In this document: positions 18,518 to 54,714 of the stretch, piece after piece
Layout: each line of letters opens with the position of its first letter
Position numbering within the stretch: position 1 is the first letter of the stretch
NCBI GenBank assembly: GCA_964187785.1
Contig: OZ076409.1
Location: 83,886,001-83,950,000 of the forward strand
Origin: Amphiscolops sp. MND2022
Taxonomy: Eukaryota
DNA: 64,000 nt
Reading direction: 5' to 3'
Made by a program: the position numbers and the translations under genes
Notes under the pieces: model-generated
The model's input: only the letters and a program-made list of their open reading frames with translations
Told to the model about the DNA's origin: nothing
The model's database searches: none

Positions 18518-21072
18518 AGCAGGTCGAAACCATTAAAATCGATCAATCTTCTTGAAAGACGTTTTCTTCTCGATCGATCAGATCCATGGTTGGAATGATT
18601 TGAGGTCAGAATCAATTGCAAACATCCAAAACTAGAAGTGTTATAAATTTTGATAATTGGTCGTATTTTCAATGGGAAAGCAATATTTGCATTGGCAGTT
18701 TTTGGGACATAGAGCTACTTGATGCGTAGAACACTATCGATTCTTAAAATTTAAGCAGAGATGCTAACTAATACATGTAGTTTTGAAATGTGAAAAAAAC
18801 GGGTTTATATTTTGAAGACTCAAGACTTCAAACCTGGACCACTGATGATCAGGGATGAACTGCAATATGGTAATGATTGCCAAAAACACCTAAGCTGCTC
18901 TCAATTTTGGTGTGAATTCTGATCTCAATTGACACCTCTGATTGTGTTTGTCACCTTATGAAGCATAGACCCTCAAAAAATGCACAAAATACAGGCTCCC
19001 CAAGTATCCTTGAGGGGGGCTGTCGTTCATAAGGTTCGCAAAACGAATCGAATTGATTGAAAAACACGAGACTTCGTACAAAACCTCTGATTTTGCGATG
19101 ACTTCGTTCCGGATTCATGACTACTCGATCATTATTTTTTCGTTGCGCCCTCCGAAAGTGCATTAGGTTTTGTTAGAAGATGCAGTCGGTCAAAATACTT
19201 AAGTTACTTGAGTTAAGGTCTTTTTTCAATGACATTTTTGATTTTTTTGCTATGACACACTGGGACGAACTTGAACATTAATGATGCAGTACCAACGAAA
19301 GCTAGAACAAGACACTCACTGAGCACCGGGATGTTTTCCGCCTTAAATTCTTTAGTGAAGTAAAAAAAAATTACGGCTTATGTGTAACCGATACACTACG
19401 GAACCTGCACAAAAAATTCTGGAACCTCAAATGTTTTGATACTTTTTGGCCGTTTTTGTTGGCTTTGGGCACTTTCTTTCAGCAAATCTCCAGCTTCCTC
19501 TACATTAAACATGTTGCGTAGCTACTCGTTTTGATATTTGTACCCACAAACACCTTCAAAAATTGTATTGAAATTACATGAAATGGTCAAAATTCCAAAA
19601 ATTTTTGGGCCGCACTTACTTTTTTTGTTTTTTTTTAGCACTTTCCATTTCCGGCACATTTTTTTTTCAATAAATATCGAATGCCTCCAGAAGTAAATTT
19701 GTAGTTGAATTCTGTTTGTTTGAATACTTTGGAAACACCTTCATTTTTGAGTAAAAAATTGGAAGATGGCAAAAGCTGGGAAAAACGGGCTAAGATTGGT
19801 TTTTTCTAAAGTGGCTTCGAAGAACGCTTCCCGGCTGTGTTTATGTGAACTGACAGTCTCCGGCTTTCAAAGACGCTCAAAAAAACGAAGCGCGTATATT
19901 TTTATTGACCTTTTTGTAAAATCCCGGACACAGAGAAAGATCCGATCATCGTATGTTACTTCAAATAGAAGTTTTGAAACTTCGAAATATGAAAACGAAA
20001 CTCGACTTCTTATACTGCTGGGATGAACTTCTCGTCACGAGAATAAGCCAATTACTTTTAGATCATTAAATTAGAGAACAGACAAGACTCTCCAACCGAG
20101 TTGAAGATGATAATTTATGCTTCATATTTGAAACGCTCTATATTTTTGATATCTCTTTTCAAATACTCTGTCGCCAATCAAGCTGAGCTGACAAAATTAT
20201 TTTGACCGAATGTTTAAGGAGATGAAACTTTCAAACTTTCGAACAAGCAGCAAAAAACTTGAACCAACTTGAATCGAATTGAAAATCGATGTTCTTCAAA
20301 AATCAATTTTTGAATCGGCATCTTTTTCAATGTATTTTACAAACACGAAGCTGATCAGTTTTAGTTGTCAAAAACTTATAAGCTTGTGCTCATTCTAATT
20401 TAAAAGTACTCATAAATTGGGTTACACAAAATTGGGTATAGGTTTACCAGGAAATTGGGTATAGGTTTACCAGGAAAAGCAAAATGAAATCGCTTTTTTC
20501 TTTCAACAGACCTCTTTTGTATCCTTTGTAAGTGGAAGTGCAGGGTTAATTTCAGATGCTCTTGGGTTGCTACTGATTTACAATCTCTTGTAACCTTCGT
20601 TTACTTTGACAAACTTAAACGGTCCACACCGGAAAACTCTCTTTGAGATCCTTGGTCTTCTGTTTCAGATTGGTCCTGCAAATGAACCCAACAAAATCGA
20701 AGTCTCTTCAGTCGAAGACCTCATTCTAATTTGACTCATAGATATTAGATTTGGCACAGCAACCAGAAATTCCTGCAATTGTAATTTAAATTTTAAGATA
20801 TTTTTGCTTTGAAGATTGAGATAATGTAACGCCGAGCGAAATTTTCACATGTAGAACAATCAATTTCATTGACTCACAATATCTAGGATCAAGAACCAAT
20901 TGACAATCGTCAGCCAATACAACGGAAACTTTCGAGAGTTTTGTACAATCTTGATGTTTTCAGACAAAAATTGGAAATTTCAAAATAGTGAATTACAGGT
21001 TCTTAGATTCTTACATTCAACTTTTCTAATTATCATATTTCTGGGATTCATTTTGATATAACTGAATTTGAC

Positions 21073-22711
21073 TGTCGCAGGCTGCCGCCTGCGATGGCAA
21101 CATCTACACAATTGACCATACGAACCCAATCGCCCTACCTGGGACGCTCCCATTGTAAACCAAAACTTTCAAACATTTAGTATTATTTTGACATGTAGTA
21201 TTGATTGATGAATTGTATTGTTATTTCTTATGTAAAATACATTTGACAGCAAGCCATACTGATAGGCAGAAAGGAAACGTGTTCAAATGTTTGCCTGTTC
21301 AGTATGGCTAGCTAAGCCGCCTATGGTCAATTGGCCAATCAGAGTGCAGTTTGTAATAGCCATCTTATTACTTATTACGTAAATGTGCTAATAACTATTT
21401 AGAATGGACCAATGCGGCCAATTAACTTTGCCGGCCTTATTGTGCTCTGATGCTATCCTTGAATGATATTCAGTAACTACAAATAGGACGAAAGCGGCTA
21501 TGCGACATAGCCGTCCCTATTCACTGTATTAATTGTCTTGGTGCTATACAGTAAATAAGGCCTATCACGGCCGGTTGGCACGATGAATACTCAAATGCTG
21601 TATACTTGCCATATGAAATTGGTATTCCAGTTAATTAGTGGTTTGAAGATGCAAATAACCCACCCCATGCAATAGACAGATATATACACTGTTAACATGT
21701 AATTGTTGCTTTCTCATATTATGATGGGACTGAATTAGAAAACCCCAACGGCCATCAGCCGAATAGGGCCTTCATGAATTGTTGAGCATGTAAACTGTTG
21801 CTTGCATGAATTTTACCTGTAAACAAATTGACCCATATGTGGAAGAGACTTGTCGGGCCCTTTGATCTAGCCGCCCGCACAAGTCTAAAATGATGTCATG
21901 TTGCTATTAATAGTTTCACTGTATCTATTTTTAGCTTGTGTGCTATTTTTAGTAACATGACTGACGAAATCTCAGATGTCATGCTAACTTGAGTATAAAT
22001 ACGCCCAAGTTGGCCGTAAGACTCAGTTGATTTATGATACGGTTGATATTCAGTTACTCTTATGCGATTTGTACAAGAATCACTGTAAACCAAGTTCTAT
22101 ATTGTCCACAGGAACAATTCACATATTTACTCCTGGATAAACATTTTCAATGCCTTCTACAAGGAGACAAAAGGCCAAGTCTAGGAAATCAAGAGAATTA
22201 GATATGTTGTCCGACTACGACAATATGGACGTAATGTTAGGTGAGAGAAATTCTAACTCTATAGAAAGAGAGCTCGACAGTTTGATTAACGTCCCCGAGG
22301 GACAACGGGACTTTCAGTCCTTTCCGAATAGAGAAAATATATCTCAAGAGAACGAAATCAGAGACATTGATAGTAGAAATGAACCAGTTAGGGAAAGTAG
22401 GCTAATTGAGTCTATCAATACACTATCTGGAGAAATGAATGCTAGAATGTCACGCGAGATGGAGGCTATGATGGACCTAGTGCAATCGCAGATTAGCAGG
22501 ACCATTAGTTCTGCTATAAGCGAGAGGATTATCCCAGAGATACAAAATATGGTAGAAAATTTGCCTTTGGGTCAACATGGCGTTGAGCCATGTACGTCCG
22601 CAGATGAGGACGGAATCAGAAATGTATGGAAGAACGCAAATACGAAATTAACAAAGAAGGATTCAAGGTCCGCCTGTGATCTGAGAGACCGCGTGGACGT
22701 TAGTCCTTACA
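21073..22711 (+). repeat. 5' LTR (1639 bp)
   Basis: TGTCGCAGGC...TAGTCCTTACA. About 27 differences from the 3' LTR by manual comparison, including a 1-bp indel. Confidence 0.97.
21996..22003 (+). promoter_or_regulatory. Candidate LTR TATA box
   Basis: TATAAATA about 150 nt upstream of the gag ATG; present in both LTRs. Confidence 0.4.
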
Positions 22712-22729
22712 TGGTGACAGGAGCTACCG
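22712..22729 (+). other. Primer binding site
   Basis: TGGTGACAGGAGCTACCG directly after the LTR end; TGG complements the tRNA CCA. Primer tRNA not identified. Confidence 0.75.
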
Positions 22730-23843
22730 ATTTCCAACAGCCGATTCCTGAATTCCTCACAGGACGAATTCACTTTCAGCCAGACCTCCAAAGACAAGAA
22801 TCCACTCATGATACAACTCTGGATACAATTCTGCCAATAGCGGAGCCTGCTCCTGCAGAACAGCCACAAGACCCTATCAACCGATTGGCAGATGTCCTGG
22901 TAATCCTCCAAAATAAACCACACTCGATGACAATTAGACCAGTCACGACGAACCCCATGACATTTGACGGCAAAACAGAGAAATTCGAATTGTTTGAAGA
23001 TTTATTTCATACAATGATAAAGATGCAGCCCGCTATGACGGAACAAATGAAAATAAATCATTTTCATTCACTGCTCCGAAAAGGAGCCCTGCAGACTTTC
23101 CGAAATACAAACTCCATAAACCGTCAAACATTAGAGGACGTATTGGTCATATTCCGCAGAAAGTACGTCAAACCTGAGTCCCAGGCCACAGCTAAACACA
23201 AATGGCATAGACTCATCTTCGATCCGAACACAATGAAACTACCCGATTTTCTTGAGGAACTCAACCAGGGTGCCGAGAAAGCCTTTGGGGAAAACGCCAA
23301 AAGCATGATCGACAGTCTCTTGTATGCTAAATTACCCCCAAAACTCAAAAGATCAGTAAATATGGCTCGACTGGAAAACGGGACCTACGAGGAGATTGTG
23401 GCACATCTGGAACGAGAACTCGAGTTAAACGCATTAGAAGAATCTGACGACCTACCCATTGCTACAATGGCTTCGTCGTCCAACAAATCCCGAAATTTAC
23501 TATCCAATGGCATTGACACCAACAAAATTAACCAATGCTCATACTGCAAGGCAGAGGACCACTTCTGGAAAAATTGTCCAAAACTGAAAAAGTAGAAAGA
23601 ATCAGAGGCCAAAGATGGCAAGAGGCCTCAACGACAAACCTACCCAGAATGCCCCACCTGCAGGAAAACCAATCATCCAGCAGAGAAATGTTGGCGTGGC
23701 GCTGGTGCCCACCTTCGTCCAAGAAGAAATAGACAAGACTCCTCCAAAGATACGGAGCCCTCTGAAGACGAAGGCACTCGCACCAAGAATGAAAAATCCA
23801 CAACATCCTCATCAGGCCAATCGAATTCCAAAAAACCTGAATC

Positions 23844-23850
23844 AAAAAAC
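23844..23850 (+). promoter_or_regulatory. -1 ribosomal frameshift slippery heptamer A AAA AAC
   Basis: X XXY YYZ heptamer immediately before the gag TAA. A -1 slip gives KKLILPRLQ, which is the pol frame (ORF 23856). Confidence 0.8.
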
Positions 23851-26800
23851 TAATTTTGCCACGACTCCAAATCTCTGATCAAATGTCGATACGACAATAT
23901 GTCATATCAGACCCAGCTACTATCGCCTACAAGCAATCACAAAAGGACATCACAGGGACCCCATCGACTGTCTGGCAGCAGCAGATGGTGGAAGCCTGTA
24001 CTCAAACTCAATACATTATCCACAGTGACCACCCATTCTTATATCGACGTAACAACCTCACTAAAGACTCAGAAACCCAATTCCGACCCTTACAAACTGT
24101 CGAAGACTACAACCCCCAATACTACGACCCCGAGTACGACAAAGACCCGTACTGGGATGATGATTCATACGATAAACACAATTTACAATTTCGGAATGAT
24201 GACTACCCGCCAACAGACGATGAGGATGACCCTGACATAGTAGACACCATACTGTCCCGGGCACTTATCGAACCGTGGCAACCAAATTTTGATGCAATCA
24301 AAGATCAGCCACATGCAGAAGAGACACAGGCCACACCTGGCCTCCTCGACGAGACAGCCTTCATACACGTCCTTGTAACTAAAGAGGGAGAACCAGCATA
24401 TATACCCTTATCCAGAAACCTCGGACTCAAATACAAAAAACAGATGCTAAATTTCCTGATGGACTTTGGGGAACTAACCATAGACGGCCTCATAGACACT
24501 GGAGCTCACTCCAGCGCAATAACGGAAGCAGACCTCAGGAAAAAACGTCTCTTGGCGCCCCAATCCATAGTCAAAGTGGGACCTGCCCCGACTCTTCAAT
24601 TTATGGTCGCAAACGGACAATTGGAAACCCCAAAGAGCACTGTTGAACTCAAGTTTGAAGTCGGAGATATCGAATTCCATGAAATATTTATAGTAATGGA
24701 AAAACTGACTGGCCCTATCATAGGACTGATGTTCCTCCAGAGGAATCATACAGTACTGGACATGCGACAAGGCATACTCAATTTCCCATATTTCTCGATG
24801 CAACTCAAAACGGCTGACCATAAATATTCCAACGTACTGGAACCAATACTTAACCCAGACGATATCACAATATCACCCAATGACCGTTTCTTAGTAGAGA
24901 TCAAATCCCAAATCTACAATGAAAATACGGTCACAGGAGTGCTACAGCCCAGTGATCTCCTCCATGAAGAAGGAGACATCACATTCTGTGCCGCGGTAGT
25001 CACATTGACTAGTGGATTTGTCAACGTTCATATCAACAATTTCACGGACCAACCGGACAAGCTTAAAAAGGGACTACACATAGCAAACTTTTCTGTACTA
25101 ACACCGGAACAGATGAAACACGTCAAACCGATTGACCCGGTGTCCACATGGCATCTCCTCAATGAAAATGAAGAGGATGCGATCTACTATGTCAGTAGTC
25201 TACTCAAGGCTAATCGGAACAATGACCAATATGAACAGTACTGGATTCCCACGCCAGAAAACCCAGGGGACGAAGATTCCCATACCCCCATCCAACGACG
25301 AATTCTTCAAGAATTACGAAACCTTCAAGAAGCTGTACAATTGAACCCTCAAAATGATGATGAGTCACGCCGCAAATTCCTTAGCAATTTCGACTGGAAA
25401 GACTCCATGCTGCAACAACACGAAATCTAAAAGATGGAATCGTTTTTAGTCGGATACCATGACATATTCGCACGACACAGATTTGACATCGGAATGAATG
25501 AAGAATTCACGGTCAAACTGACCCCTAAGGACGATTCGCCCGCTTACAGCCAAAGTCTTCCAACTCCACTCAATTTAAAAGAGGACATACTCGTCGAACT
25601 GGCCCTCTTACACAAATATGGCATTATAACTACACTGCCATTTTCGAAATACGCCAGTCCCATATTTGCACAGAAAAAGCCGAATGTTAAGCTAAGACTA
25701 CTAGTCGACCTGCGGAAAATTAACAACCTCATTTCGGATGACTATATAAACAACAATCTTCCGGTTAGCACCCTAACGGACGCTGGACAACATATGGCAG
25801 GAAAGAAACTGTTCTGTAAACTCGACTGTTCACAGGCATACCACTGCCTACCAATGGCGGACCAAAGGTCCGTTGAGATGCTTGCGTTCAATTTTGCAAG
25901 CCGCACCTTTGCGTACAGACGACTTGTTCAGGGCCTTAGCAGAGCATTATCAGCTTTTTCAAGTTTTATGAGGGAATACCTCGATAAAGTTATCAAAGCA
26001 GACCAATGTGCCCAATATGTCGACAACATTGGCATAGCTGCCAACGACGCAGATCATCTCATCATAAATTTGAAAGCAACTTTTGAGTGTATCAGACATG
26101 CGGGCCTTAAACTAACGATGCACAAATGTCACTTCGGGGCAACGGAAATCGATTTCCTGGGAAAAACATTTACCCCGGAAGGTGTCAAACCACAAAAGGA
26201 GCGAATAACAAACTTTCTAGAAAAAACCAAATTCCCCAAGTCTAAAAAGGCTCTGCAAAGATATCTTGGTTTCCTCAATTATTACAGGAACTATATCCCA
26301 AGACTATCTGAAAAACTAGCCCCTTTCTTCCAACTTCTCAAAAAAGACGAAAAAGTCCTGGTGACCACAGAACTAAAACAACAGTTCAATGAAATCAACC
26401 GGGACTTCGACAAATGTAGCCAATTGGCCCTGAAGCAACCTTTGCCAAACAAGCAACTGGTCCTGATGACAGACGCTAGTTTCACAGCGGCCGGCTACGC
26501 CATACTTACCGAGGACGACCCAAACCAGAAATATTCATCTGTCAAAAAATCATACGCTCCAATTGCATATGGCACAAAAACTTTTGCGCCATCGCACTTC
26601 AAAATGTCCATATACGCCAAGGAATTCTTAGCGATATATCACGCATTCAAAGAATTTGGACATATTTTCTGGGGAGCCCCTAAACCGATTACCATCCTCA
26701 CGGACAACAAATCGGTCACGAGATTCTTCCAGACGAAGATAATCCCTGCAACACTCTGGAATGCATGTGACTATGTAATACAATTCAACTTTGTCATAGC

Positions 26801-29075
26801 ACATATACCAGGAAAACACAACACAGCAGCCGACTACTTATCTCGCATGGAAATGGACCCCAGAGAGAAACTGGTCCTTAAAATCCGCGAAGACATAGAG
26901 ACTAAGCCCATCGAGGTCAATGTCTAATCGGCAGGCGTTGCTGAAGAGGAACAGGTTTTCTTCACGGAGAAAGATGATGAGACAGAAGCTCAAGTTTGGG
27001 AACATAAAAAACAAAGCCGAACTAACCCAATCGACCAAGAAGGCGTAATTCAAATTGACGCAATATCTGAAAATTTAGTAGATGAAATTACGAACTTTAC
27101 CCAAAAAATGCGCAGAACGAATCAAATTTTACTTGAACAATCCAAAGACCCTATACTGCGCCAACTCAAAGCCAAAATTCAAAACGAAGACTATTCTGAA
27201 GAACTACTCCAGCAAGATATCCGATACAAACACTACCTTAACAACTTGGACCGAATAGTCCTTAAAGACGAAATAGTCACACGACAAAATTATGATGAAA
27301 CTGGACAAGTCAAGTATCACCAGGTTCTCTTACCAAAACACCTTTTGACAGAATTGTTACAGGCCTTACACGGAACGGCGCACAAACACCCTGGCATATC
27401 GAAAATGTTACAAGAAATCCGACAGAAATATTACTACCCCGGTATAGCAAAACATGTTAAAAAATGGGTAGAAGGATGTGTAACTTGCGCAAAAGATAAA
27501 AGGGTTCCAAACAACACGATAACACCTGAATTGCTTAACTTGCCAGAATGGGACCTTGGACCAGAGGACGCAATGCAAATCGATTTACTCCCAAACTTAC
27601 CAACAAGCGGGGGTTACCAAACAATGATGACAGCAATAGATGTCTTTTCAAGATATCTGTTTGCCTACCCGCTAGTTGAGGCAACAGCCTCTAACACGGC
27701 AAAGGCCTTAATAGACATCATGACAAAGCACTCATATATGCCAACTACGATCATCACCGACAAAGCAACCGCTTTTACATCAAAAATTATTGCAGAGATA
27801 ACGCAAGTATTGGGAATAACCCTAAAATGTGCGACGACTAAACATCCACAAACAATTGGCAAACTCGAGAGAACTCACGCCTCATTGAAGACAAATTTGA
27901 AAATGGCCTCAGGTTAATATCGCCGTCAATGGCACAATAATTTGCCACTAGCAGTGCTCAATTATATTACAACTTATCATTCCTACATCGGTTGTGAACC
28001 AAGCAAGGTCTTTCACGGAAGAATTCCCTATAATGTTCTTGATCATAAACTTGGAAATAATCCCAATAAGGATTTCCTCCCGACGACAGAATTTGCTGAA
28101 GAATTACAACAGAGAACGAAATTTCTCATTGACAAAACGAAACACAACATTATGCAGTCCTACTTGAAATACAAGGAGTACTATGACCGAAAAGCCAAAG
28201 CAGCTCCTCTCAGCGAACAAGATTTTTGTTTTATCCTACAGCCTAAAGCGGATAATCAAGGATCAAAAATACCATTTAGAGAATATCGCTGGATCGGGCC
28301 TTATCGAATTGAAAAGGTCCGCCGGTTAAATACGAATAAAACACAGATATTACACCGAATCCGCCTGAAAAAATTTGTTCCAAACACGTCTTTAGAGGAC
28401 AAATATGCCAAAAAGAATTTTCAACCAGATGATGAAATAATCATACCGCAACCGCAAGATGATTTATACACCATCTCATGGAAAGCAGATTTTGACTACC
28501 ATGTCTTCGAGCCGAGACGAGACGATAATACGGACGAAGAATTACAAACACCAGACAGCGATGCTGGTGTCACGACTAGTGATTACGTCATTTATGACAA
28601 CGCTGATAACAACGCGGTAAGGCCGGGGACGGCCACCAGCCGAGAAGGCACAATCACACGAGACGCAAATGACGTCACCGAATTGAATGAACGAAACAAA
28701 ATGAATGAAAATGTAGCGCGACCGAGTACGGCCGCTAGCCAAGACGCACCTATAGTACATGACGAACATGACGTTAACGAGAATGCTGCGCGAGAAGAAC
28801 AAAGCAGCGAAACAGGAAGGCCGAGAACGGCCACTAGCCGAAATAGCCACAATGGTGGCAATACACCTCCTAATTCAAAAAAGAACGTGAATGACGTCAC
28901 AAATGAATTAGAAGGCGAGAAAAACTCTCTTAACGAGGGGAATGATATTACCGTGCCCGGAATATCGAATAAAAAAGCAAATGAAAAAACTGATGAAAAC
29001 TCTAGCCCTAGAGGGGGGAAATACAACCTTCGACCTAACCCCAACCCCAACTTTACTGATGAATACAGATACTAG
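23850..29075 (+). pseudogene. pol: pol polyprotein (protease, RT, RNase H, integrase) with three in-frame TAA stops
   Basis: ORFs 23856, 25434, 27108 and 27942 are all in one frame, separated by single TAA codons (25428, 26925, 27915). Motifs: LIDTGA (PR); LDCSQAYH and YVDN (RT, second Asp lost); TDAS (RH); HHCC plus IDL/TDKA/KLER (IN); GPY. Confidence 0.95.
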
Positions 29076-29253: not shown

Positions 29254-32200
29254 TTAGTCTTTAGATGAACCCTCTCGCAATTCTTGCACTGTCTTTGACA
29301 ACTCATCAGCAGGGAGATCACCGAAATAAGCAAGTTTTTGTGCTTGGCCGGCAGCCCAAATAATCTTCCGAACAGCAGTAGTGGACACAGAGCATGAGCG
29401 TGACGCAGTACTGATATCGACAACAGGAACACTTTTCAAGCTCTTAAAAGCACTGCTGAGATTCTTTAAGAATTCGGCCCGGCCAAACACGTCAGCGTGG
29501 ACCCAAGGGTCACCAGCGAAGTGCCTGGAGCTGAACTGTCCCTCTAACTCACGATACTGGGCCAAGGCGGACTCAGTTGTGCAAATGGCAATGGCTTCTG
29601 GGCAGTTTGACAAATACGACTGTGCGGGCAAAATTACTGCAGAAAGTCGACAACTGGAGCTAGAAGTATCTACATCATGGAATTTGATGGTCGGAAGTTC
29701 CTGATGGGCCTCAGTGATACAAAGACAGCATAACCGGAAGAGGTGGAAAAGCCTTGAACGGCTACGAAACGATGGCATAACGATAAGGAAGTCCAACATA
29801 TCATATATTGTGTTGGGAGCATTCTTGACAGTGCCACAAGTATTTCGGAAAAGATCGATGAACTCGAAATACTCTTCTTGGTAGTCACTCTTGACGGCTA
29901 GGTCCACCCAACCACGGAGGTGGAAGCTATCAAACAGGGCGTTGAAGCAGAAGGTAGCCTGTTCCAAAGGAAGAGAGAGCAACACGTGTGGGTCGAAGCA
30001 ACCCATACCATGTATGATATCAGCGGTGAAATGGATGTCCTCCAACAAAGCTTCCAATAGAGAGACAATGTAGGCGCGAGCTTCTGTCCCAAATTTTTCC
30101 TTCTCCTTAGCGACCATTTCTTCTAGACTGGCAGTGGGAGCCTTGTCAGCAGGGAAACGCTTCACTTTAGCCTGGCAAGCAGCATCAAGGTCAACGGTAA
30201 ATTTGAGTCGATTCAAAAAATCGCGGCAAGATAGCTGTCTCAGATCGTCAGGGCACAGATGAAGCAACTTTGTCCACTCAATGTCTCCGGGGAAGTACTT
30301 GGGCAGAATGGCCCGGTGGCACAATTTTCTGACGTAACGGCAATACTGTCCGTGAACGAACAGTGCTGAGACTCGTCGCTTGGCCAGACTACGCTCAAAG
30401 CATTTGGTATCTAAACAAACGAAGTCAAAATTGAGTCCTAATATGTGATAATCTAGTGAGGTCTCCTACCTTCTCAATCACTAATGGCAATTAAGATCAA
30501 ATTCCAACATCAAAGGAAAAGAGACAATTAGGGCTCAGCTTTACAATGAAGAAAAATGACTAACATTCACGGACTAGAAGGGACAAAAGTTCTAATTTAG
30601 CGGTGAACAAATCGTCCTGGATGATCTCCCACTCCAGACTTTGTGGCTAAAATGAAAAATTATATGAGAACTGGGTCGACAAGAAGGACTACTTCACATG
30701 AGAGTGTTCAGGAAATTAAATGGACAAACAGAAGACTTGTACCTTGTTTCTCACTCCTTGCATTACTTGAGTTGGTGCCAATTTTGTCAAGTAGTCGTGA
30801 ATGGTAGACCAATTCTTTATGAGTTCAGTGCAAATTGTCGGGACCTTTTTGAGGTCAAGGTCACAAGCTGCGGATGCCTGCAAAAGAATAATCCTCATAG
30901 TCATGCTATAAGTCAGGAGGACAAAGGACCTATGGGCTGCAATGAAAATCAGAGAAACGATGGTTACATGATGTAATGCCAACAGAAATTTAAGTTGGAC
31001 CCACCTTACACAACTCTGGACATTGTGGGGCCCATGGCTGGCTTGGACTACCGCGGAGAAAGACGACTAAGTATTTCAACTGCGAGAACATACCAATGCG
31101 GCCAAAGACATGGGTAGTCTGAAGGGCGTTTGGGTGCATCAGGTCAGGCAGAGAAAAGGCTTCAAAGCGGAAGGGATATTGGATTCCGTGCTCATATAGT
31201 TTGGAAGATTCAAGGGCCTGGAACACCATAGAGGAACAGCCGGAGATGCTGACTAAATTCGGCTTGGAGGAAACGCAAGACAACAAGCACGATATGGCAG
31301 ATAAGTAGCAATCAGGGTACGCATCAGACTGCAGATGCCGGTGGAGCTCTACACGGACGAGTGAGTCCCCCCTCCAGAAGCGGATTGACATACACCGATA
31401 GACACCAGCTGTGGTGAATTCAATGGAATAAATCCCAGTAGCAATGACTTGACTGGAGATGTCAGCTAGCCCCCGCATGAAAATGTCCTGGAAGATGTTC
31501 TGAAATGGAAACGGATAATTAAAGAAGTTCGAGACCCATCGACCAACCGGGCCTATATTTAGATATGAACTACAGAACTACTTACGGTGAGAGTAGCAGG
31601 TCCCCAATCGAATGAGGAGAAAAGGGCTTGATGGTTGGTGAACACACCGACCCTTGTCCATAAATTCTGCATGAGCGAGAGGTTGCCATCTTGAGGAACA
31701 AATGTTCCAATTAGAGAAATGAGGGTGCTAGTTCGCAAATCACTGGGATTGGTGATTCCCCCTATGCTGGCCATGTAGTCGTCGTAAAATGGATAACGGC
31801 CTCCCGCATCAATGAGTGGAGCGTCTATGAAGCGGGGCTTCTCCCTTTCCAGCTCGAAAGGAGTAAGGACATAACCGTCCTTCCCCCTAACTTGATGTGT
31901 GACGATTCCAGTAATACTGTCTGTCTCTTGCAAATGGACATAACGCCATTTTTGATCTTTCCGCAGATGCCCTTCTTTCTGGTAATGGCGCAATATCTCT
32001 CTCGCCCCTTTAGAGTAGATGGATACGTTAGTCTTACACAACATACAGTAGAACTTGAATTTGTTGTGAATCGGGTCAACGGGTCCAGTCACAAAGGTTC
32101 GGGTCCATTGGATGCCCTTGAAGTACGCATCTTTCATAACCTTCCCTGGTTTGCTCAATAATTTCCTTTTCTTCCGAGGAGGGCTACGTGGCAATGTCTC

Positions 32201-33466
32201 CATATCTTTAGTCCGGCCAAATGCAGATAACGGTTGGTAGTCGGTGCTGCTGTACCCACTGCCCGATGTAGGAGTAGCGTTATCAGCTCGAGACGTGCTG
32301 GTACGAATCCCCAAGCTTGTTACGGGGGTGAGTGTTAGAGGATCTGTTTCGCTAACTACATCTGTGCCAGAAATCGACCCAAGCTGGTAAGGATCCTCGT
32401 CAGAGTTTATGGCACCACTCGTATAGCCATCACTCACATTCCCTTTTTGGCTGTCTTCCTCCCCTGAACTCTCAGCAAGATGGCGGGCTGGGGTAGGACA
32501 CCTTCGGGGCATTTTCCTCTTTTTGTCCTGAGAAGTCCCCGTTGCGGCATGTAAAAGAAGGGATTTCATCATATGATATGAAGAAAGAGCGCTTTCGTCG
32601 GCAACAGTTCTGAGGATAGCGTGCATCTGCTCCTGATTGAACGCAACGGTAGAGTGCCCAACTGGTAATCGGATTGGTGTTGCGGCAGTAAAATATTTAC
32701 GGATGATGGTTCGTCCTTTGGCTGACAACTGTCTATCGCTGGATTCAAGCCTAGCCCGGTAAGCTTCTTGCTCCTCATCACTGTTCCCAGCCTCTAAGTG
32801 AAATTCCCCTTCAAGGTCCTGAAAATCCTCAGGATTCAATGTAACGTTCCGGGAAACAGGAGGGAAAGCAGCAACTCCAGAGCTGTCCAATAACTCCTCA
32901 GCATCAGTTGTGTCACCATAAAGTGGTGCAGCCCCTTCTTGGGAGGCAATCTCTTCTTTGTCATTAGGCCCAGTGGGGCTAATTGGCCGACTAGGAGTTA
33001 TAACGATGGCTTCTGAGACCGAGACCTTCTGGAAAGCAAAGTCCATGGTGGACATTCGGGGCACTGCACCTTGTTGAGCAGGGAGGATTGAAGCTGATTC
33101 TGGCTCAGGCAGGCTCATCTCTGCGACTGTTCTTTCGATGAAAGCAGTAACGCTCTCATTAGTGGATCGACTACAATTGGAAGTCTGAGAAGACGGACGA
33201 GGAGGGTCAGTAGTATTCGCCGACCCAATGTGCTCAAGGTTATCTTCGTTGGAATTATTGATTGTGGGGACAGTGGATTCTGGCAAAGCCTTCGTAGACG
33301 ACAGCTTAAACAGAAGAAAATAAATTTTTGCGGGCAACTTCCTGAAAACGTGTCCATATGTACTGCAGTAAAACCTTCCGGAAGTGAAAAGAAAGCGATA
33401 TTGAAATCGTTTGATGAAAAGGACAGGAAGTACCTGAACGAGAGGAAGAGCCTTGATCAAGCTCAT
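29254..33466 (-). CDS. Antisense spliced accessory gene, 1151-1267 aa, NLS-like motif plus BED-like zinc finger
   Basis: Exons 33466 (or ATG 33118)-31586, 31499-31010, 30936-30743, 30646-30565 and 30410-29254. Introns are 86, 73, 96 and 154 nt, all GT-AG and phase-matched (0, 1, 0, 1). The spliced frame is open to the stop at 29254. Confidence 0.8.
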
Positions 33467-33805
33467 TTCCGTTCAAAATTAAAAAGACCAGATAGCTCAC
33501 CTGAATTAATTGTCCAATTGGAGATTGGATTGAGCAGAAATGGAAGATCGTTCCGATTGAGATGATTTGTTACTGATTTTCCTGAAGGAGCTGGCGCAGG
33601 ACGGTAGAATGCCCAGGTGGGACCGTATCGGAAAGGGTGTAAAATTGTGGCTATTGTAGTCAAGCCTGATTCCAAAGCGAGAACTGCTGTTGACCCAAAG
33701 GGCAATCGATAAACCAGACCAGGAATGGTGAAAGCGATTTAAAGGGTCCTCTAATGAAATAAAGATAAGAAGAAACTAAAAACTGACTGTGATACTGAGT
33801 ATACA

Positions 33806-34066: not shown

Positions 34067-34488
34067 TTCCACCATTTTGGAAAGCGGACAGAGTGGGCGA
34101 TTCCCATTGGCTGTCGCGACGATGCGCCGCGCGTGGCCTTAAAACTTCATCACCCTCTCTTGAAATTCTCAAGTGGATATCAAGTGGAGATAAACACTAG
34201 ACGAAGTCCTTGAAGGTTCTTTGCCGACTTAGGCAAGCTGAAGTTGATCGTCGGTCAACAGAGCGGAAGGCGGTCTATATCAAAGAACATCTTGGAAAGT
34301 TTCGTCAATGAAACATGATGCGGGAAACGAAAGACCGGGAAAATGTGAAGCAAAACCATCGAGAAATTGAGAAATGAAAATCGCCATTTGCTTCCTAACT
34401 TTCAAACTAAACAGTTACTCTACTCAAACCGAATTAAAATTGTCCTATTGCTTTCAAAATTGCAAAAAAGATAATAAAAGATAGATTT

Positions 34489-35328
34489 ATGGCTCAACGA
34501 TTTCCTGAAGACTTCATTGGCGCAGCGCCTGAGGGCGTAGATATTATCTGCCTGTCCAGCGACGAAGAGGAGGGAATGTGTGACCTAAGCATGACTTCGG
34601 TGCTCGACCTTCAACTGTCATCGGAAGACGAAGAAGAAATAGATGACGAAATCATGATGATGGCCCAGTGTGTCGAGATGGAATTATCATCACCCATCCC
34701 AGTGCCTGGTCCATCCTCAGCGCTGAAAATTAGAAACGAGGCCCCCCGATATAACCCACCAAGGTACGGGACCTCCGGGGCGAGATTTGCAACAAGGCCT
34801 ACTCTTGACCAATCCTTCTTCTCATTAGGAAAAGGAAACGGCCCAATACGGCGAGACGACCGAGTGCGCAATAATCACCCTATCAAGCTGTGTAGGGAAA
34901 TCATTCCCATGGTGGACACTCCCATGTCGCCCCCACCAGAAGAGAAAGGACCAACTTACGACACCTATTCAGCGGACGGTCAGGGCGAGACTACACAGCA
35001 GTCATTGGACGCAGTTGCAAACCATTTCCAAGGAAGGGAGATTGAGACGAACAATCCTATGGCAAATTACTCAGATTGCGTGATATGTGGGAAATCTACA
35101 TTACAAATCCAGTGTGAAGCAGTCACAGATTACTTGCGCAAGACGGCCATTTTGGGAGAATCAGCAGATCAACTAGAAGCACGCAAAAGAGCTTTTTTGG
35201 AAGGAATGCAAGTGGGCACTTTCTTATTACTACCAGGGGGAGTGTCGCAGGCTGCCGCCTGCGATGGCAACATCTACACAATTGACCATACGAAGCCAAT
35301 CGCCCTACCTGGGACGCTCCCATTGTAA
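34489..35328 (+). CDS. Sense accessory ORF (279 aa) overlapping the PPT and 3' LTR
   Basis: ATG-initiated and uninterrupted. Acidic N-terminus with VDIICLSSDEEE and VLDLQLSSEDEEE, and a CVIC pair. The last 28 codons and the stop lie in the LTR. Confidence 0.75.
   Translation: MAQRFPEDFIGAAPEGVDIICLSSDEEEGMCDLSMTSVLDLQLSSEDEEEIDDEIMMMAQCVEMELSSPIPVPGPSSALKIRNEAPRYNPPRYGTSGARFATRPTLDQSFFSLGKGNGPIRRDDRVRNNHPIKLCREIIPMVDTPMSPPPEEKGPTYDTYSADGQGETTQQSLDAVANHFQGREIETNNPMANYSDCVICGKSTLQIQCEAVTDYLRKTAILGESADQLEARKRAFLEGMQVGTFLLLPGGVSQAAACDGNIYTIDHTKPIALPGTLPL
35235..35242 (+). other. Polypurine tract
   Basis: AGGGGGAG abutting the TG of the 3' LTR. Confidence 0.75.
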
Positions 35329-36882
35329 ACCAAAACTTTCAAACATTTAGTATTATTTTGAACATGTAATATTGATTGATGAATTGTATTGTTATTTCTT
35401 ATGTAAAATACATTTGACAGCAAGCCATACTGACAGGCAGAAATGAAACGTGTTCAATTGTTTGCCTGTTCAGTATGGCTAGCTAAGCCGCCTATGGTCA
35501 ATTGGCCAATCAGAGTGCAGTTTGTAATAGCCATCTTATTACTTATTACGTAACTGTGCTAATAACTATTTAGAATGGACCAATGCGGCCAATTAACTTT
35601 GCCGGCCTTATTGTGCTCTGATGCAATACTTGAATGATATTCAGAAACTACAAATAGGACGAAAGCGGCTATGCGACATAGCCGTCCCTATTCACTGTAT
35701 TAATTGTCTTGGTGCTATACAGTAAATAAGGCCTATCACGGCCGGTTGGCACGATGAATACTCAAATGCTGTATACTTGCCATATGAAATTGGTATTCCA
35801 GTTAATTAGTGGTTTGAAGATGCAAACAACCCACCCCAAGCAATAGACAGATATATACACTGTTAACATGTAATTGTTGCTCTCTCATATTATGATGGGA
35901 CTGAATTAGAAAACCCCAACGGCCATAAGCCGAATAGGGCCTTCATGAATTGTTGAGCATGTAAACTGTTGCTTGCAAGAATTTTACCTGTAAACAATTT
36001 GACCCATATGTGGAAGAGACTTGTCGGGCCCTTTGATCTAGCCGCCCGCACAAGTCTAAAATGATGTCATGTTGCTATTAATAGTTTCACTGTTTCTATT
36101 TTTAGCTTGTGTGCTATTTTTAGTAACATGACTGACAAAATCTCAGATGTCATGCTAACTTGAGTATAAATACGCCCAAGTTGGCCGTAAGACTCAGTTG
36201 ATTTATGATACGGTTGATATTCAGTTACTCTTATGCGATTTGTACAAGAATCACTGTAAACCAAGTTCTATATTGTCCACAGGAACAATTCACATATTTA
36301 CTCCTGGATAAACATTTTCAATGCCTTCTACAAGGAGACAAAAGGCCAAGTCTAAGAAATCAAGAGAATTAGATATGTTGTCCGACTACGACAATATGGA
36401 CGTAATGTTAGGTGAGAGAAATTCTAACTCTATAGAAAGAGAGCTCGACAGTTTGATTAACGTCCCCGAGGGACAACGGGACTTTCAGTCCTTTCCGAAT
36501 AGAGAAAATTCATCTCAAGAGAACGAAATCAGATACATTGATAGTAGAAATGAACCAGTTAGGGAAAGTAGGCTAATTGAGTCTATCAATACACTATCTG
36601 GAGAAATGAATGCTAGAATGTCACGCGAGATGGAGGCTATGATGGACCTAATGCAATCGCAGATTAGCAGGGCCATTAGTTCTGCTATAAGCGAGAGCAT
36701 TATCCCAGAGATACAAAATATGGTAGAAAATTTGCCTTTGGGTCAACATAGCGTTGAGCCATGTACGTCCGCAGATGAGGACGGAATCAGAAATGTATGG
36801 AAGAACGCAAATACGAAATTAACGAAGAAGGATTCAAGGTCCGCCTGTGATCTGAGAGACCGCGTGGACGTTAGTCCTTACA
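35243..36882 (+). repeat. 3' LTR (1640 bp)
   Basis: Direct repeat of 21073-22711, followed by TSD TTGAC. Confidence 0.97.
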
Positions 36883-36944
36883 TTGACTATTATCAAGTCT
36901 TGTTCAAGGCAATTTTTAACAATTCACCTAAAAGCGTGAACTGA
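36321..36944 (+). pseudogene. LTR copy of the gag N-terminus reading out into flanking DNA
   Basis: Near-identical to the first 187 gag residues, then 20 flank-encoded residues (IDYYQVLF...). Confidence 0.9.
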
Positions 36945-37300: not shown

Positions 37301-37467
37301 AATGCAATTTTTATAATCCTAGCCACAGGCGGCTGCAAAACAGAAACGCTACCCGACACCCTACCCTTTAACTACAGGGTGACCGTCACCCTGTAGTTAA
37401 AGGGTAGGGTGTCGGGTAGCGTTTCTGTTTTGCAGCCGCCTGTGGCTAGGATTATAAAAATTGCATT
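37301..37467. repeat. Perfect 167-bp palindrome (83-bp arms, 1-nt spacer)
   Basis: 37301-37383 is the exact reverse complement of 37385-37467. Confidence 0.95.
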
Positions 37468-50825: not shown

Positions 50826-51765
50826 GTTATCGATACACCTGCTTTCTCAGCCACACTAACCACCTTTGTGGCACTAACCACCAAAGACGACTTCACACCG
50901 TTCCTCCTCCACGCCAAAGATCCTTACAATTTCTTTCGCCCATATTGTTCAATGCTGTCAGCCTCGATGACAGGAGACAGATCCCCAGCAGCAGAACATT
51001 GGATCTTTTTGAGTTCCTCATTGGCACAGAAACCACAGAGGAAAGTCCTAGAGAAGAAGTTTCGGGAATCAACGCTGGTACCCAGCTGTTGATCCAGATG
51101 ACGCAGCCGCTCTCATCAACTCCGGGCCCTGTGCATTCGACCAGATGAAAACTACCTTCTTCTTTCATCGTCGGATTTTGCGCTGAAGTTGAATTTTACG
51201 AGATGGACCCATCTTGATGGGCGTTTTAACATTTAATATATTTAAAAAGTTTATCACAGTTAGGCTGAATTAAACAACTTTGCCTACAAGAGGAGCGCGG
51301 AAGAGATGAAGAGACTGCGAAACACCTTTTTTTACTCTCAACTTTCTGAAAACAGAGAATTGTCCAGGGAAAAACTCTTCATCTATGACTTGGAAAACTG
51401 CTTGAAACTTGTTAATTCCACTACTTCTAGTTGCGATTTGCACTTAAAGAAAACGACATTGATACTAACGAGACATCAACATAGGAGATCCACCCATCCA
51501 ACGAACAACAAACTGAACTAGCAAACAAAAGAACTGATGTACTTTACTACAAAATCATGTCAACTGGTGCTAAACATGCCAGCAGAAAGGGGGCACAAAT
51601 AGAAACTACATTATTTCACATAAAACTTGTTTCTACCGGTCGACTGGTAGTAGCTGGTAAGAGTGTATTGTTGGTTCTTTTTGCTGCTTCTGGGATAGTG
51701 ACTTTCACGGGGTTTCCTCCCTTCGTTGCAGATCACTGGTTAGAGTTATAAAAAGTTTCAAAGTG

Positions 51766-53252
51766 AAAATCGTGTCTCGGACATGTCCCCATTTCCTCTA
51801 GTGCCCCGCGGCGCCTTGGGGTCGCTTATGTTCCCATCTTGCTAAGCGAGGTCGAACAGGTGCAAAGAGCTAGCGGGAACGGAGATCGCGAAAAGATCGT
51901 GGTAGGAGCTGGTCTTTGCGACAGTGAGGGCGAGCGTGCATACACCGGATATGCCTCACATTATAATTTCGCTTTCGAAAAGTCTCTTTTTGCAGATGTA
52001 GACGGTATTTGGCCTTTTTGCCGATTCCCATTTTGCCGAATCCCACTTTGCCGAACTTGTAAATGGTCGCTTGGCCTAATGCCATTTGAATTAAACTCAT
52101 TTGGCTTCAATCAATTGGTCAGTTGGCTAAATTTTTTTAAGCTAAGTGTCTCGGGTATTGGTCACTTGGCCTAAAGTTGTTTGACTTGAAACCACTTAGT
52201 TGAAAACACGCGGCAGATTTTGTCGAATTTATCTTTATAACGTAGTCAGAGTACTATTATAAGGCTACGTGGAATCAGGTCCAAAAACCTTTTCTAATTT
52301 GATCTAATTCGAGAAAAAAATAAGTCAATTAGGATCTAAAAGTAAAAAGTGATATAAATTATAAAACGTGCCTCGGATATGTCCCCATTTCCTCTAGTGC
52401 CCTGCGGCCCCTTCGGGCCGCTTTTTTTCCCATCTTGCTAAGCGATGTCGAATAGGAGCGAAGACCTAACGGGAACGGAGATCGCCAAACGATCGTAGTG
52501 GTAGCTGGTCTTTGCGACAGTGAGGGCGAGTGTGCATACACCGGATATGCCTCACATTATATTTTCGCTTTCAAAAAGTCTGTTTTTGCAGATGTAGACG
52601 GTATATGGCCTTTTTGCCGGTTCCCATTTTGCCGAATCCCACTTTGCCGAAAGGGTAAATGGTCACTTGGCTTAATACCATTTTACTTGAACTCATTTGG
52701 CTTCAAACAATTGGTCAGTTGGCTTCGTTTTTCCAAGCTAAATGTCTCAGGTATTGGTCACTTGGCTTAAAGTTATTTGACTTAAAACCACTTAGTTGAA
52801 AACACGTGGCAGATTTTGCCGAATTTATCTTTATAAGGTAGTCAGCGTACTATTATAAGGCTACGTGGAATCAGGTCTAATGAAATAGATCTAAGAGAGG
52901 GGACAAAACTGAGATCTAAATAAATTGATCTAAATAATCAGGTCAAAAAATTTTTTCTAATTTGATATAATTTGAGAAAAAATAAATTAATTAGGATCTA
53001 AAATTAAAAAGTGATGTAAAGTATAAAACGTGCCTCGGATATGTCCCCATTTCCTCTAGTGCCCTGCGGCCCCTCGGGGCCGCTTTTATTCCCATCTTGT
53101 TAAGCGATGTCGAATAGGAGCGAAGACCTACCGGGAACGGAGATCGCGAAGCGATCGTGGTAGGAGCTGATCTTTGCGACGGTGAGGGCGATCGTGCATA
53201 CACCGGATATGCCCCCACATATTTTCGCTTTCAAAAAGTCTGTTTTTGCAGA
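51766..53252. repeat. Tandem array of ~600-660-bp units (two complete, one truncated)
   Basis: CGTG(T/C)CTCGGA(C/T)ATGTCCCCATTTCCTCTAGTGCCC anchors at 51771, 52367 and 53029. Confidence 0.9.
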
Positions 53253-53254
53253 TA

Positions 53255-53465
53255 AAGGCAACTGCCTTGCCCACTTTGCCGGAAATTAATTCGGCAAAAT
53301 GGGCAAGGTAGGGACACTTTGCCGAATTCGGCAAAATGGGGTTCTGCAAACTGTCCCGTATTCATGTAGACAACTGCCTTGCCCACTTTGCCGAAAATTA
53401 ATTCGGCAAAATGGGTAAGGTAGGGACACTTTGCCGAATTCGGCAAAATGGGTTTCGGCAAACTG
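53255..53465. repeat. Short tandem/palindromic TTGCCGAATTCGGCAA repeat
   Basis: Two ~112-bp units (ACTGCCTTGCCCACTTTGCCG...) rich in TTGCCG/CGGCAA half-sites. Confidence 0.8.
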
Positions 53466-54714
53466 GCCCATATTCGGCGTTATTCCCGCTCCTACTGCCA
53501 AAAGAGGAGCAGAAATAACGTCTGAATGCAAAATGGGAATAATATCTGAGCCAAGTCACGCTCGTTCAGAATGAGAAGACATTGAATTTTAGACTTTATT
53601 CCTTAGACAAACGCTGGCCTACTTTATTCGCGCTACTACTGCCAAAAGTGTTAACGAACAAAAAAGTGCCACAGGAACAAGCGAACGGTTCGGGACGAAG
53701 ACCACTTAAGCGAACTTTACTACTTGTAAATCCGCGTTTTAATGTCCGTTTTGTTTCATTAAGAAATATATGTCTTCTTTGCTTCGTAATCGTTACCAGT
53801 TCACATTCCTCTTTGAGTTTCTGAATTGAGATTCCTCCTGGGTCCTTTGAACTCTCTGGTTGCATGATCCTTTCCTTATTTTTTTTATGTTTCCTATGTT
53901 GGTTGGATTTTTTTGTCTGCCGCCCGGGCTGGGGGCACATGATGAATACAGAAGCGTTTTTTAAGAAACGCTGATTGATGACGACGATCCAATTCTGATT
54001 GCCTGATAAAGGAACAAGCGAATGTCGAAAAAGTCAGCGAACAAAAAAAGTCAACGCTAACACATACAAATTTTTGCATATCACTACTGTAGTGCCGTAA
54101 CCCTAAAATACCAGCCGTGTGAACCTTGCCAGTTGCTCAATTTGTTGTTGCAATGTTATATTGCTTAGATTCTATATGCTCGAAAGCTGTTTTTTTTGTG
54201 ATTTACACGGAAATTTGCTCTATTCCTGTATACCCTGAAATTTACCATCGGTCATGCATCTAGTTTTAGAAGCCATTTAAACTATGGCTTCTAATAGCTT
54301 TACATATAGCTAATTTTTTTAAACCTCTATATCATTGCAGCTTTAAAAGAAATTCTACCGGTCGACTGCGATAGCGGCTGGTATGAGTAGTTTGTTGGTT
54401 TTCTTTTTGCTACTGGGATAGTGGCTGATATGGGGTTCACTACTTTCGTTGCAGACCACGGGTGTGTGTCTTCTCCCCCCAACATGATGATACACATGGC
54501 ACTTGATTGATGAGGAAGATCCATGATATATGAATCTGATAGAGGAAAAAATTTAAACTATGATCCTGAGGACGAAACAAACTAGTAGTCCTCCTCGTTA
54601 ACATGCAAGCGTCCGTCGCTTGCCGTTTCAATAGTTTTCTTTACTGTTGGACGGTGTTATTGTTGAAGTATTTTGTTTTGAGCGCTCTGCAAATAAGCTC
54701 ATTTTCCAGGAGAG

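Follow-up and report, generated by a model that had tools for sequence, protein, structure and literature searches.

The window examined in this study is a 64,000-nucleotide stretch from Amphiscolops sp. MND2022 (GenBank assembly GCA_964187785.1, contig OZ076409.1, positions 83,886,001 to 83,950,000 of the forward strand). It carries a 15.8-kb long terminal repeat (LTR) retrotransposon that we class as Ty3/gypsy, based on the order of its pol domains and the match of its reverse transcriptase (RT) to the Ty3, foamy-virus, and caulimovirus group; LTR elements are abundant in acoel genomes, according to the accessible text of one report (PMC9911081). At the 3' end of the element, on the plus strand, lies an accessory open reading frame (ORF; P0001, positions 34489 to 35328, 279 amino acids plus stop) that continues through the polypurine tract (PPT) into the 3' LTR. 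Comparison with its homologues indicates that this ORF is a real gene under protein-level selection, and its product has a conserved, putative SUMO-interacting motif (SIM) near the N terminus.

The element is flanked by 5-bp target-site duplications (TTGAC, 21068 to 21072 on the left and 36883 to 36887 on the right), and its LTRs, which end in TG...CA, are 98.4% alike (1620 matches and 27 mismatches in a local alignment). The 5' LTR (1639 bp, 21073 to 22711) begins with a copy of the coding tail of the ORF that has no start codon, and it has TATAAA at LTR position 922; the 3' LTR (1640 bp, 35243 to 36882) opens with TGTCGC. Both LTRs, the primer binding site, gag, and pol lie on the plus strand. 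The primer binding site (22712 to 22729) begins with TGG; a search of the whole 64-kb window found no tRNA. The gag gene (22150 to 23595), which matched DUF1759 below the cut-off (E 8e-05), starts inside the LTR, and pol (23841 to 29075) has the Pfam order protease, RT, RNase H, and integrase; among solved structures, the RT is nearest to the Ty3, foamy-virus, and caulimovirus enzymes. In-frame stops break both genes in the present copy, gag at 23595, where its frame closes, and pol at 25430, 26927, and 27917. The start of gag appears acoel-like and corresponds to LTR position 1078, so that 187 gag codons lie inside each LTR (22150 to 22711 and 36321 to 36882); the frame runs on through the primer binding site, and the gag copy in the 3' LTR stays open for 207 amino acids and terminates in the DNA beyond the element. 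Coding sequence contains both priming signals (the primer binding site within gag, the PPT within the accessory ORF), so that this element without env shows an economy like that of retroviruses. No Rfam family was found between positions 20000 and 38000.

A sequence-only reading of this DNA had described an intact 279-codon frame completed by the 3' LTR, and that description was borne out. Translation of 34489 to 35328 meets no internal stop; the PPT (AGGGGGAG, 35235 to 35242) codes for part of the peptide PGGV (G250 and G251 in full, flanked by the final base of P249 and the initial base of V252); and the first 86 nucleotides of the 3' LTR (35243 to 35328) supply the C terminus and the stop codon. 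Apart from one differing base, this coding tail also opens the 5' LTR, and the two peptides that had been quoted as motifs are present at residues 17 to 28 and 38 to 50. Homologous proteins are numerous: a single-sequence search returned 91 homologous clusters with 36 to 97% identity among 1539 candidates, a profile search returned 306 clusters among 5305 candidates with identity down to approximately 30%, and a library of 50%-identity representatives contained 287 proteins at E values up to 0.001. Even at about 30% identity, the homologues hold the length, start, and stop of the ORF. Several clusters have more than 100 members (128, 136, and 138 among them), and the ORF is intact in such high-copy subfamilies. 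The expectation that it would be unbroken in close copies also held, since 106 of the 135 listed members of nine large clusters are full length, although this count was taken from called ORFs, so broken copies are undercounted; the SIM is kept in 23 of 25 close copies.

The evidence for selection comes from one independent DNA locus, L001, which was the single relative among 228 pattern matches in metagenome contigs. The two proteins are about 38% identical, and of 251 aligned codons, the first, second, and third positions match in 136, 161, and 98, respectively. The proportions of synonymous (pS) and nonsynonymous (pN) differences, which were derived from this one sequence pair, are uncorrected, and are near saturation, were 0.71 and 0.41 over the whole ORF, 0.85 and 0.17 for residues 128 to 150, 0.65 and 0.33 for residues 194 to 247, and 0.61 and 0.33 for the LTR-encoded tail (residues 262 to 279). 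Within residues 19 to 28, different codons are used for 4 of the 6 shared residues. Because synonymous change exceeds nonsynonymous change, we conclude from this comparison that the gene is selected as a protein, the SIM and the LTR-encoded tail included. Directly before the start codon, an A-rich stretch, AAATTGCAAA (34460 to 34488), is common to L001 (428 to 460) and reads in frame as IAKK or FKKK in several clades; it may be a signal in the 5' untranslated region or a short N-terminal extension.

The sequence-only reading had also proposed tandem SIM-like motifs, and one half of that proposal stands. The first motif, IICLSSD (residues 19 to 25, 34543 to 34563, plus strand), which contains CK2-type serines, matches the SIMa pattern in the form in which SIMa, SIMb, and SIMr are printed in the accessible text of PMC3395311, and it is conserved, with a mean consensus identity of 0.72 compared with 0.23 to 0.36 in its flanks. 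The second, VLDLQLSSEDEEE (residues 38 to 50, 34600 to 34638, plus strand; core VLDLQL), matches none of the three patterns and is among the least conserved stretches of the protein (mean 0.22 over residues 38 to 43), and it was rejected as a SIM. Farther along, DDEIMMM (residues 52 to 58, 34642 to 34662, plus strand), which is acidic and then hydrophobic, matches SIMr and occupies the position of the reverse motif DSDIEVI of a group of homologues that we call clade C.

The conservation of the motif was assessed in homologues chosen blind to it, with a profile of residues 128 to 252 only; 377 of 438 candidates matched, and the 224 that were near full length formed 22 clusters at 60% identity. 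SIMa was the majority state in 15 of these clusters and some SIM pattern was present in 18 (the other four being singletons), for which shuffled sequences gave expectations, not probabilities, of 0.89 and 1.73, respectively, as the clusters are related. The patterns matched 5 of 186 control windows from the family of the antisense gene discussed below. A separate, stricter pattern applied at 70% identity was found in 18 of 30 (broad form) and 14 of 30 (strict form). In clade C, which comprises five clusters (support 100/99), the SIMa core is absent from all five, and three have a strict reverse SIM (DSDIEVI or DDDIQVL) some 25 to 30 residues downstream, with the other two being one residue off; outside clade C, SIMa is found in 15 of 17 clusters. 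This loss of a forward SIM and gain of a reverse SIM amounts to a natural experiment.

Individual columns were counted in 24 representatives, which stand for 19 of the 22 clusters plus five high-copy proteins and leave out P0033 and P0056 (without the motif) and P0209 (with it). The 18 representatives outside clade C all have hydrophobic residues at positions 19, 20, and 22 (Pro being allowed at 19), and position 21 may be C, Y, I, N, or W; this pattern of column variation is as expected of a SIM. In the six clade C representatives, position 20 is Ser or Ala. S23 and S24 are present in all 24 and are followed by an acidic run. The predicted local distance difference test (pLDDT) value of the SIMa region is below 50, which places a conserved core in a disordered and poorly conserved setting. 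Phospho-SIMs are known for PML, Daxx, and PIAS1, and phosphorylation by CK2 raises their affinity for SUMO, according to the accessible text of PMC4276917. We consider it rather likely that the protein binds SUMO.

A perfect 8-bp hairpin at the start of the LTR (35245 to 35264, plus strand) encodes the peptide SQAAACD. It recurs at 21075 to 21094 and is identical in L001 (1196 to 1215), with a z score of -2.2 and 6 of 200 shuffles as good. Between the window and L001, 8 of the 9 codons from 253 to 261 are identical (pS 0.16), and the peptide SQAAACDG is kept in 21 to 24 of the 24 representatives, depending on the position. Because these codons are near-identical as DNA and form a hairpin, SQAAACDG and its residue C258 were rejected as proof of protein function, the stretch being held as DNA. 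The hairpin is probably a cis-acting signal for plus-strand priming or integration; the LTR-start DNA had 0 matches in viral contigs. Since SQAAACDG occurs in nearly all representatives, the run-through of the ORF into the LTR is probably family-wide, being directly visible at two loci and extrapolated to the remainder.

The C-terminal part of the protein contains several near-invariant residues. The block HPIxxC...DTPxSPP (residues 128 to 150, 34870 to 34938, plus strand) includes C135 and an invariant S147-P148; its basic residues, P-I-x-L, and T-P-x-S-P resemble a mitogen-activated protein kinase docking site beside a phospho-acceptor. C135, S147, P148, C197, C200, G201, E224, A235, and G239 are present in 24 of 24 representatives and H179 is present in 22 of 24, and H179, C197, and C200 (35023 to 35088, plus strand) would join C135 in a candidate CHCC zinc site. 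The Rad50-type zinc hook was matched weakly by 1 of 35 family members (E 0.023). Two other roles were tried and rejected. A SUMO-targeted ubiquitin ligase of the RNF4 or ICP0 type is not indicated, as there was no RING match and the conserved Cys and His residues for such a comparison are only C135, H179, C197, and C200 plus the DNA-constrained C258. An env-like role was rejected because hydropathy is low, the N terminus is acidic, and no Pfam family was matched; no membrane segment was suggested, the best 19-residue hydropathy being 1.12 here and 0.66 to 1.56 in the 24 representatives.

The AlphaFold monomer model has a mean pLDDT of 49, with a confident helical hairpin at residues 204 to 246 (35098 to 35226, plus strand). 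Dimer formation was modeled with two copies of residues 126 to 279 and zinc, the alignment not being used and the calibration being done without ligand. The dimer score was 0.49 (0.49, 0.52, and 0.43) versus 0.00 for the best of three controls, and the runs shared at least 43% of their contacts with pLDDT values of at least 47, the fold being uncertain. In microbes, 21 of 30 solved one-chain pairs attained the mark set for a dimer, as did 0 of 23 single chains. A235, G239, and G243 form the predicted dimer contact, with the tightest contacts being A235-A235 and G239-G239, between residues that are invariant in 24 of 24 representatives. The C-terminal hairpin is accordingly predicted to form a dimer. 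C197 and C200 fall outside the confident dimer contacts, which reflects uncertainty and not absence.

Upstream of the ORF lies an antisense, intron-bearing, hAT-transposase-like gene in several frames (29254 to 33472, minus strand). A BED-like C2H2 finger is found in the frame from 31559 to 33472 and hAT-dimerization-like features are found in the frame from 29254 to 30465; the gene also has a basic KKRK-type stretch. Its family comprises 167 clusters, and the finger was matched weakly in 24 of 30 family members (best E 1.4e-04). The gene itself gave no direct Pfam match and a fold search of its model gave none at E 0.001; the language-model features of the last frame were 0.92 similar to Atlas clusters with PF05699 (in 60% of members), a recognition below the mark. 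The homologous frames all lose similarity directly after a shared GT donor (31585 here), which argues that the gene is spliced, and its antisense orientation would explain how an intron-bearing gene persists in a retroelement.

The ORF and the antisense gene are head-to-head, pointing apart across about 1 kb that includes a GC-rich candidate divergent promoter (34090 to 34330, no strand assigned). The 11-mer AAGTGGATATC lies upstream of the ORF at both loci (34171 to 34181 here and near 96 to 106 in L001), in each case with ATTGG 60 to 90 nucleotides upstream of it (34106 to 34110 here) and GCGGGAAA downstream (34320 to 34327 here). All three are possible promoter elements. As a motif in its own right, GCGGGAAA was rejected as significant (3 in the window versus 1.73 expected). 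The sequence-only reading had left the choice between an internal promoter and a spliced RNA; because the ORF starts at a Met-x-x-x-Phe common to the family (20 of 24 representatives have F5) and no strong splice acceptor was found within 450 nucleotides before the ATG of the ORF, it is plausible that the ORF is expressed from its own internal promoter rather than by splicing, against which we count six upstream ATGs in 34100 to 34488. Judged by shared lengths, contigs apparently common to homologues of the ORF and of the antisense gene number 11 of 119 (two of them short), and the corresponding figure for gag or integrase members is 12 of 37; as most of these contigs are long, this is only a hint that the two genes are linked in other copies.

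The reading that we favor, tentatively and at somewhat under an even chance, is that the ORF product is a dimeric, phospho-tuned, SUMO-binding adaptor that competes at the chromatin of its own element. The ORF would be a standing accessory gene of this Ty3/gypsy lineage, with its own promoter and its end in U3, and its product would be mostly disordered, with an N-terminal SIM, a proline-directed phosphorylation site, a small zinc-bound module, and a dimerizing helical hairpin. CK2 may phosphorylate the serines beside the SIM, and the dimer would present two or more SIMs and could therefore bind SUMO chains or multiply SUMOylated complexes avidly. The protein would then act in the nucleus, where it would compete for the SUMO-dependent recruitment of silencing enzymes to the element or redirect it, possibly guided to chromatin by the DNA-binding protein that the head-to-head hAT-like gene encodes. 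This version of the SUMO-binding effector postulated earlier is preferred because silencing guided by PIWI-interacting RNAs in Drosophila requires SUMO, which together with Su(var)2-10 recruits SetDB1/Wde to the targets, according to the accessible text of 10.1101/533091.

Several observations weigh against this reading. A SUMO-dependent silencing pathway in the host is drawn by analogy from Drosophila, and a SIM binder could equally use SUMO for activation, export, or self-limitation. On the motif itself, SIM patterns are short, the second quoted peptide was lost as a SIM, the clusters behind the counts are related, and the clade C swap is one event only. In addition, Y21-x-S-S-D stays in clade C despite the lost SIM core, so part of the motif conservation must have another cause, and residues 50 to 66 are predicted to be helical, which is ill-suited to a SIM at residues 52 to 58. 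With regard to the dimer, the model has pLDDT values below 50, and the interface exceeds the other hairpin positions in conservation only slightly (0.65 versus 0.53, p 0.066). In eukaryotes, 17 of 29 solved pairs attained the dimer mark (7 of 16 from animals, and only 1 of 7 without an older solved relative), as did 0 of 30 single chains, and the calibration covers no disordered chains. Finally, the basic stretches of the ORF are RRDDRVR and RKR, and there is no clear nuclear signal beyond them.

A broader proposal, which we regard as rather unlikely, is that the two divergent genes form a counterdefense cassette under one promoter, in which a captured hAT-derived DNA binder would locate copies of the element and a dimeric, multi-SIM decoy would remove or redirect SUMO-dependent silencing at those copies. 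If so, an animal retroelement would have VANC-like, family-specific antisilencing directed at the SUMO step, which would help to explain the spread of the lineage into many high-copy subfamilies.

Other readings account for parts of the same data. The protein could be a Tas/Tax-like transactivator whose acidic N terminus activates the LTR or the internal promoter, with DNA contact made through the BED-finger antisense protein and the SIM-like motif being either part of the acidic activator or itself a secondary regulator. A regulatory role has been proposed for the antisense ORFs of Retand (PMC11963269, in its accessible text), and here residues 1 to 70 have a net charge of -19, F5 is present in 20 of 24 representatives, residues 50 to 66 are predicted to form an amphipathic helix, and the neighboring head-to-head gene belongs to the family with the finger matches in 24 of 30 members. 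However, no DNA-binding domain was found in the ORF with Pfam, and the register psi-psi-x-psi-S-S-D is fixed over 60 to 70% divergence. Activation domains rarely hold such a register over that divergence, and we judge this explanation unlikely. Somewhat less likely still is an RNA regulator of the Rev or CERV type: the element would make both intron-bearing and unspliced RNAs, and a multimer with a phospho-switch at the Ser-Pro site would bind element RNA through the Cys/His module and promote the export of genomic RNA. CERV of Cer1 multimerizes, is nuclear, and has an essential Ser-Pro phosphorylation site and a Cys loop (PMC10309623, in its accessible text); in our family S147-P148, C135, C197, and C200 are invariant, R232/R233 stay basic, and a dimer is predicted. 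Against such a role, the protein is acidic overall outside residues 71 to 150, SUMO goes unmentioned in the accessible text on CERV, and the conservation of the SIM and the reverse SIM of clade C would be left unexplained.

The persistence of Y-x-pS-S-D/E where the SIM core has gone raises the further prospect of a docking motif, of the phospho-FFAT type or for a CK2-primed reader, with a role in particle assembly, trafficking, or integration-site choice. Y21 is found in 17 of 24 representatives and S23 and S24 are found in all, those of clade C included, but position 21 is C, I, or N in the present copy and in several high-copy subfamilies, in all of which the SIM core is kept. FFAT-type motifs depend on an aromatic residue and would not allow C, I, or N there, and we place this account marginally below that of an RNA regulator. 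The motif evidence would serve equally well for a self-limiting factor, as a dimer that binds SUMO could link to repressors just as easily as compete with them, and such a protein would bring SUMO-dependent repressors to the element and cap its copy number. The ORF is nevertheless intact in the high-copy subfamilies (the clusters of 128, 136, and 138 members), and under a brake that acts in cis, copies without the function should have spread faster, which makes this outcome quite improbable. Least credible, to the point of being nearly negligible, is the idea that the frame has no protein function and is a by-product of conserved cis-acting sequences around the PPT and the beginning of the LTR. 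The near-identical codons 253 to 261 and the hairpin would fit, but the DNA identity is limited to those 9 codons; elsewhere third positions are near saturation while residues are kept, and length, start, and stop persist in homologues down to about 30% identity.

The SUMO-binding adaptor that we favor has partial counterparts among known systems. The nef gene is likewise an accessory ORF across the PPT, attachment site, and U3 (PMC11076291, in its accessible text). Unlike nef of HIV and SIV, however, the ORF described here belongs to a Ty3/gypsy element without env, has only 28 codons in the LTR, lacks Gly at position 2, combines a SIM with a Cys/His module, and has no sequence match to nef in Pfam or the Protein Data Bank (PDB), whether as a protein or as a 35-row profile. 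CERV is also an accessory protein of an animal gypsy-type element, a multimer with a Cys cluster and an invariant Ser-Pro. Compared by its description in the accessible text of PMC10309623 only, it differs in being 517 amino acids long, in having ring-forming and G-like domains, and in being translated from a spliced mRNA, whereas our ORF consists of one frame at the 3' end. The interval from pol to the 3' LTR holds additional ORFs, on either strand, in the plant elements Retand (TRP28), Grande, and RIRE2 and in bdelloid elements (their ORF3s); these are family-wide, with functions that are unknown or regulatory in the accessible texts (PMC11963269, PMC7264820, PMC5408684). There was no Pfam match to their domains, and env, GDSL, and DEDDy features are absent here; instead, the sense ORF crosses the PPT and has the intron-bearing hAT-like gene as its head-to-head partner. 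Arabidopsis VANC21 and VANC6 are transposon accessory proteins that demonstrate antisilencing factors encoded by transposons (PMC6719617, in its accessible text), and the outcome that we propose, a family-limited relief of silencing, is theirs as well. VANDALs, in contrast, are plant DNA transposons, VANC acts on DNA methylation via a tandem DNA motif, there was no sequence match, and relief of silencing by our ORF is a proposal. The likeness to the phospho-SIMs of PML, Daxx, and PIAS1, a hydrophobic core followed by serines and acids, is at the level of the motif only, and those are host proteins; RNF4 and ICP0 differ in that our ORF has no RING domain.

Database and fold searches gave no usable match outside the family itself. 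P0001 matched 0 Pfam families, with scattered weak matches among 35 members; PHROGs gave 1 weak match in 5 proteins, and a profile search of the PDB gave 2 matches (E 1.2 and 4.5). The ESM Atlas had no usable match for the ORF, a wide structure search (VIA) had a best Z of 5.2 over a generic helical hairpin, and a viral fold library gave no match at E 0.001; given so weak a monomer model (mean pLDDT 49), a new fold does not follow from these negative results. Among 19 pattern matches in viral contigs, none was a relative. No description of the protein family was found in the literature searched, a coverage that excludes most subscription journals and the repeat databases. ORFs across the PPT and U3, additional ORFs in the interval from pol to the 3' LTR, transposon antisilencing factors, and phospho-SIMs were thus all known, and what appears to be new is this unnamed protein family with one well-supported SIM. 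The counter-silencing cases in the accessible text of the review PMC6719617 are narrow and all from plants. A family that is intact across at least 22 subfamilies of an animal retrotransposon and built around a putative SIM may provide a handle on whether such elements attack silencing at its SUMO step.

Elsewhere in the window, an intact host gene (54715 to 55749) encodes 344 amino acids with an N-terminal RRM (Pfam E 6.7e-15) and a basic tail, and it is presumably NIFK/Nop15-like. Introns, this RRM gene, and the richness of the DNA in repeats suggest an animal-like eukaryotic host. A perfect 83-bp inverted repeat with a 1-nucleotide spacer lies just downstream of the element (37301 to 37467). 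Tandem arrays occupy 62101 to 63016 and 51747 to 53475, with periods of about 122 and 600 nucleotides, and many short dispersed repeats are scattered through the rest of the window.
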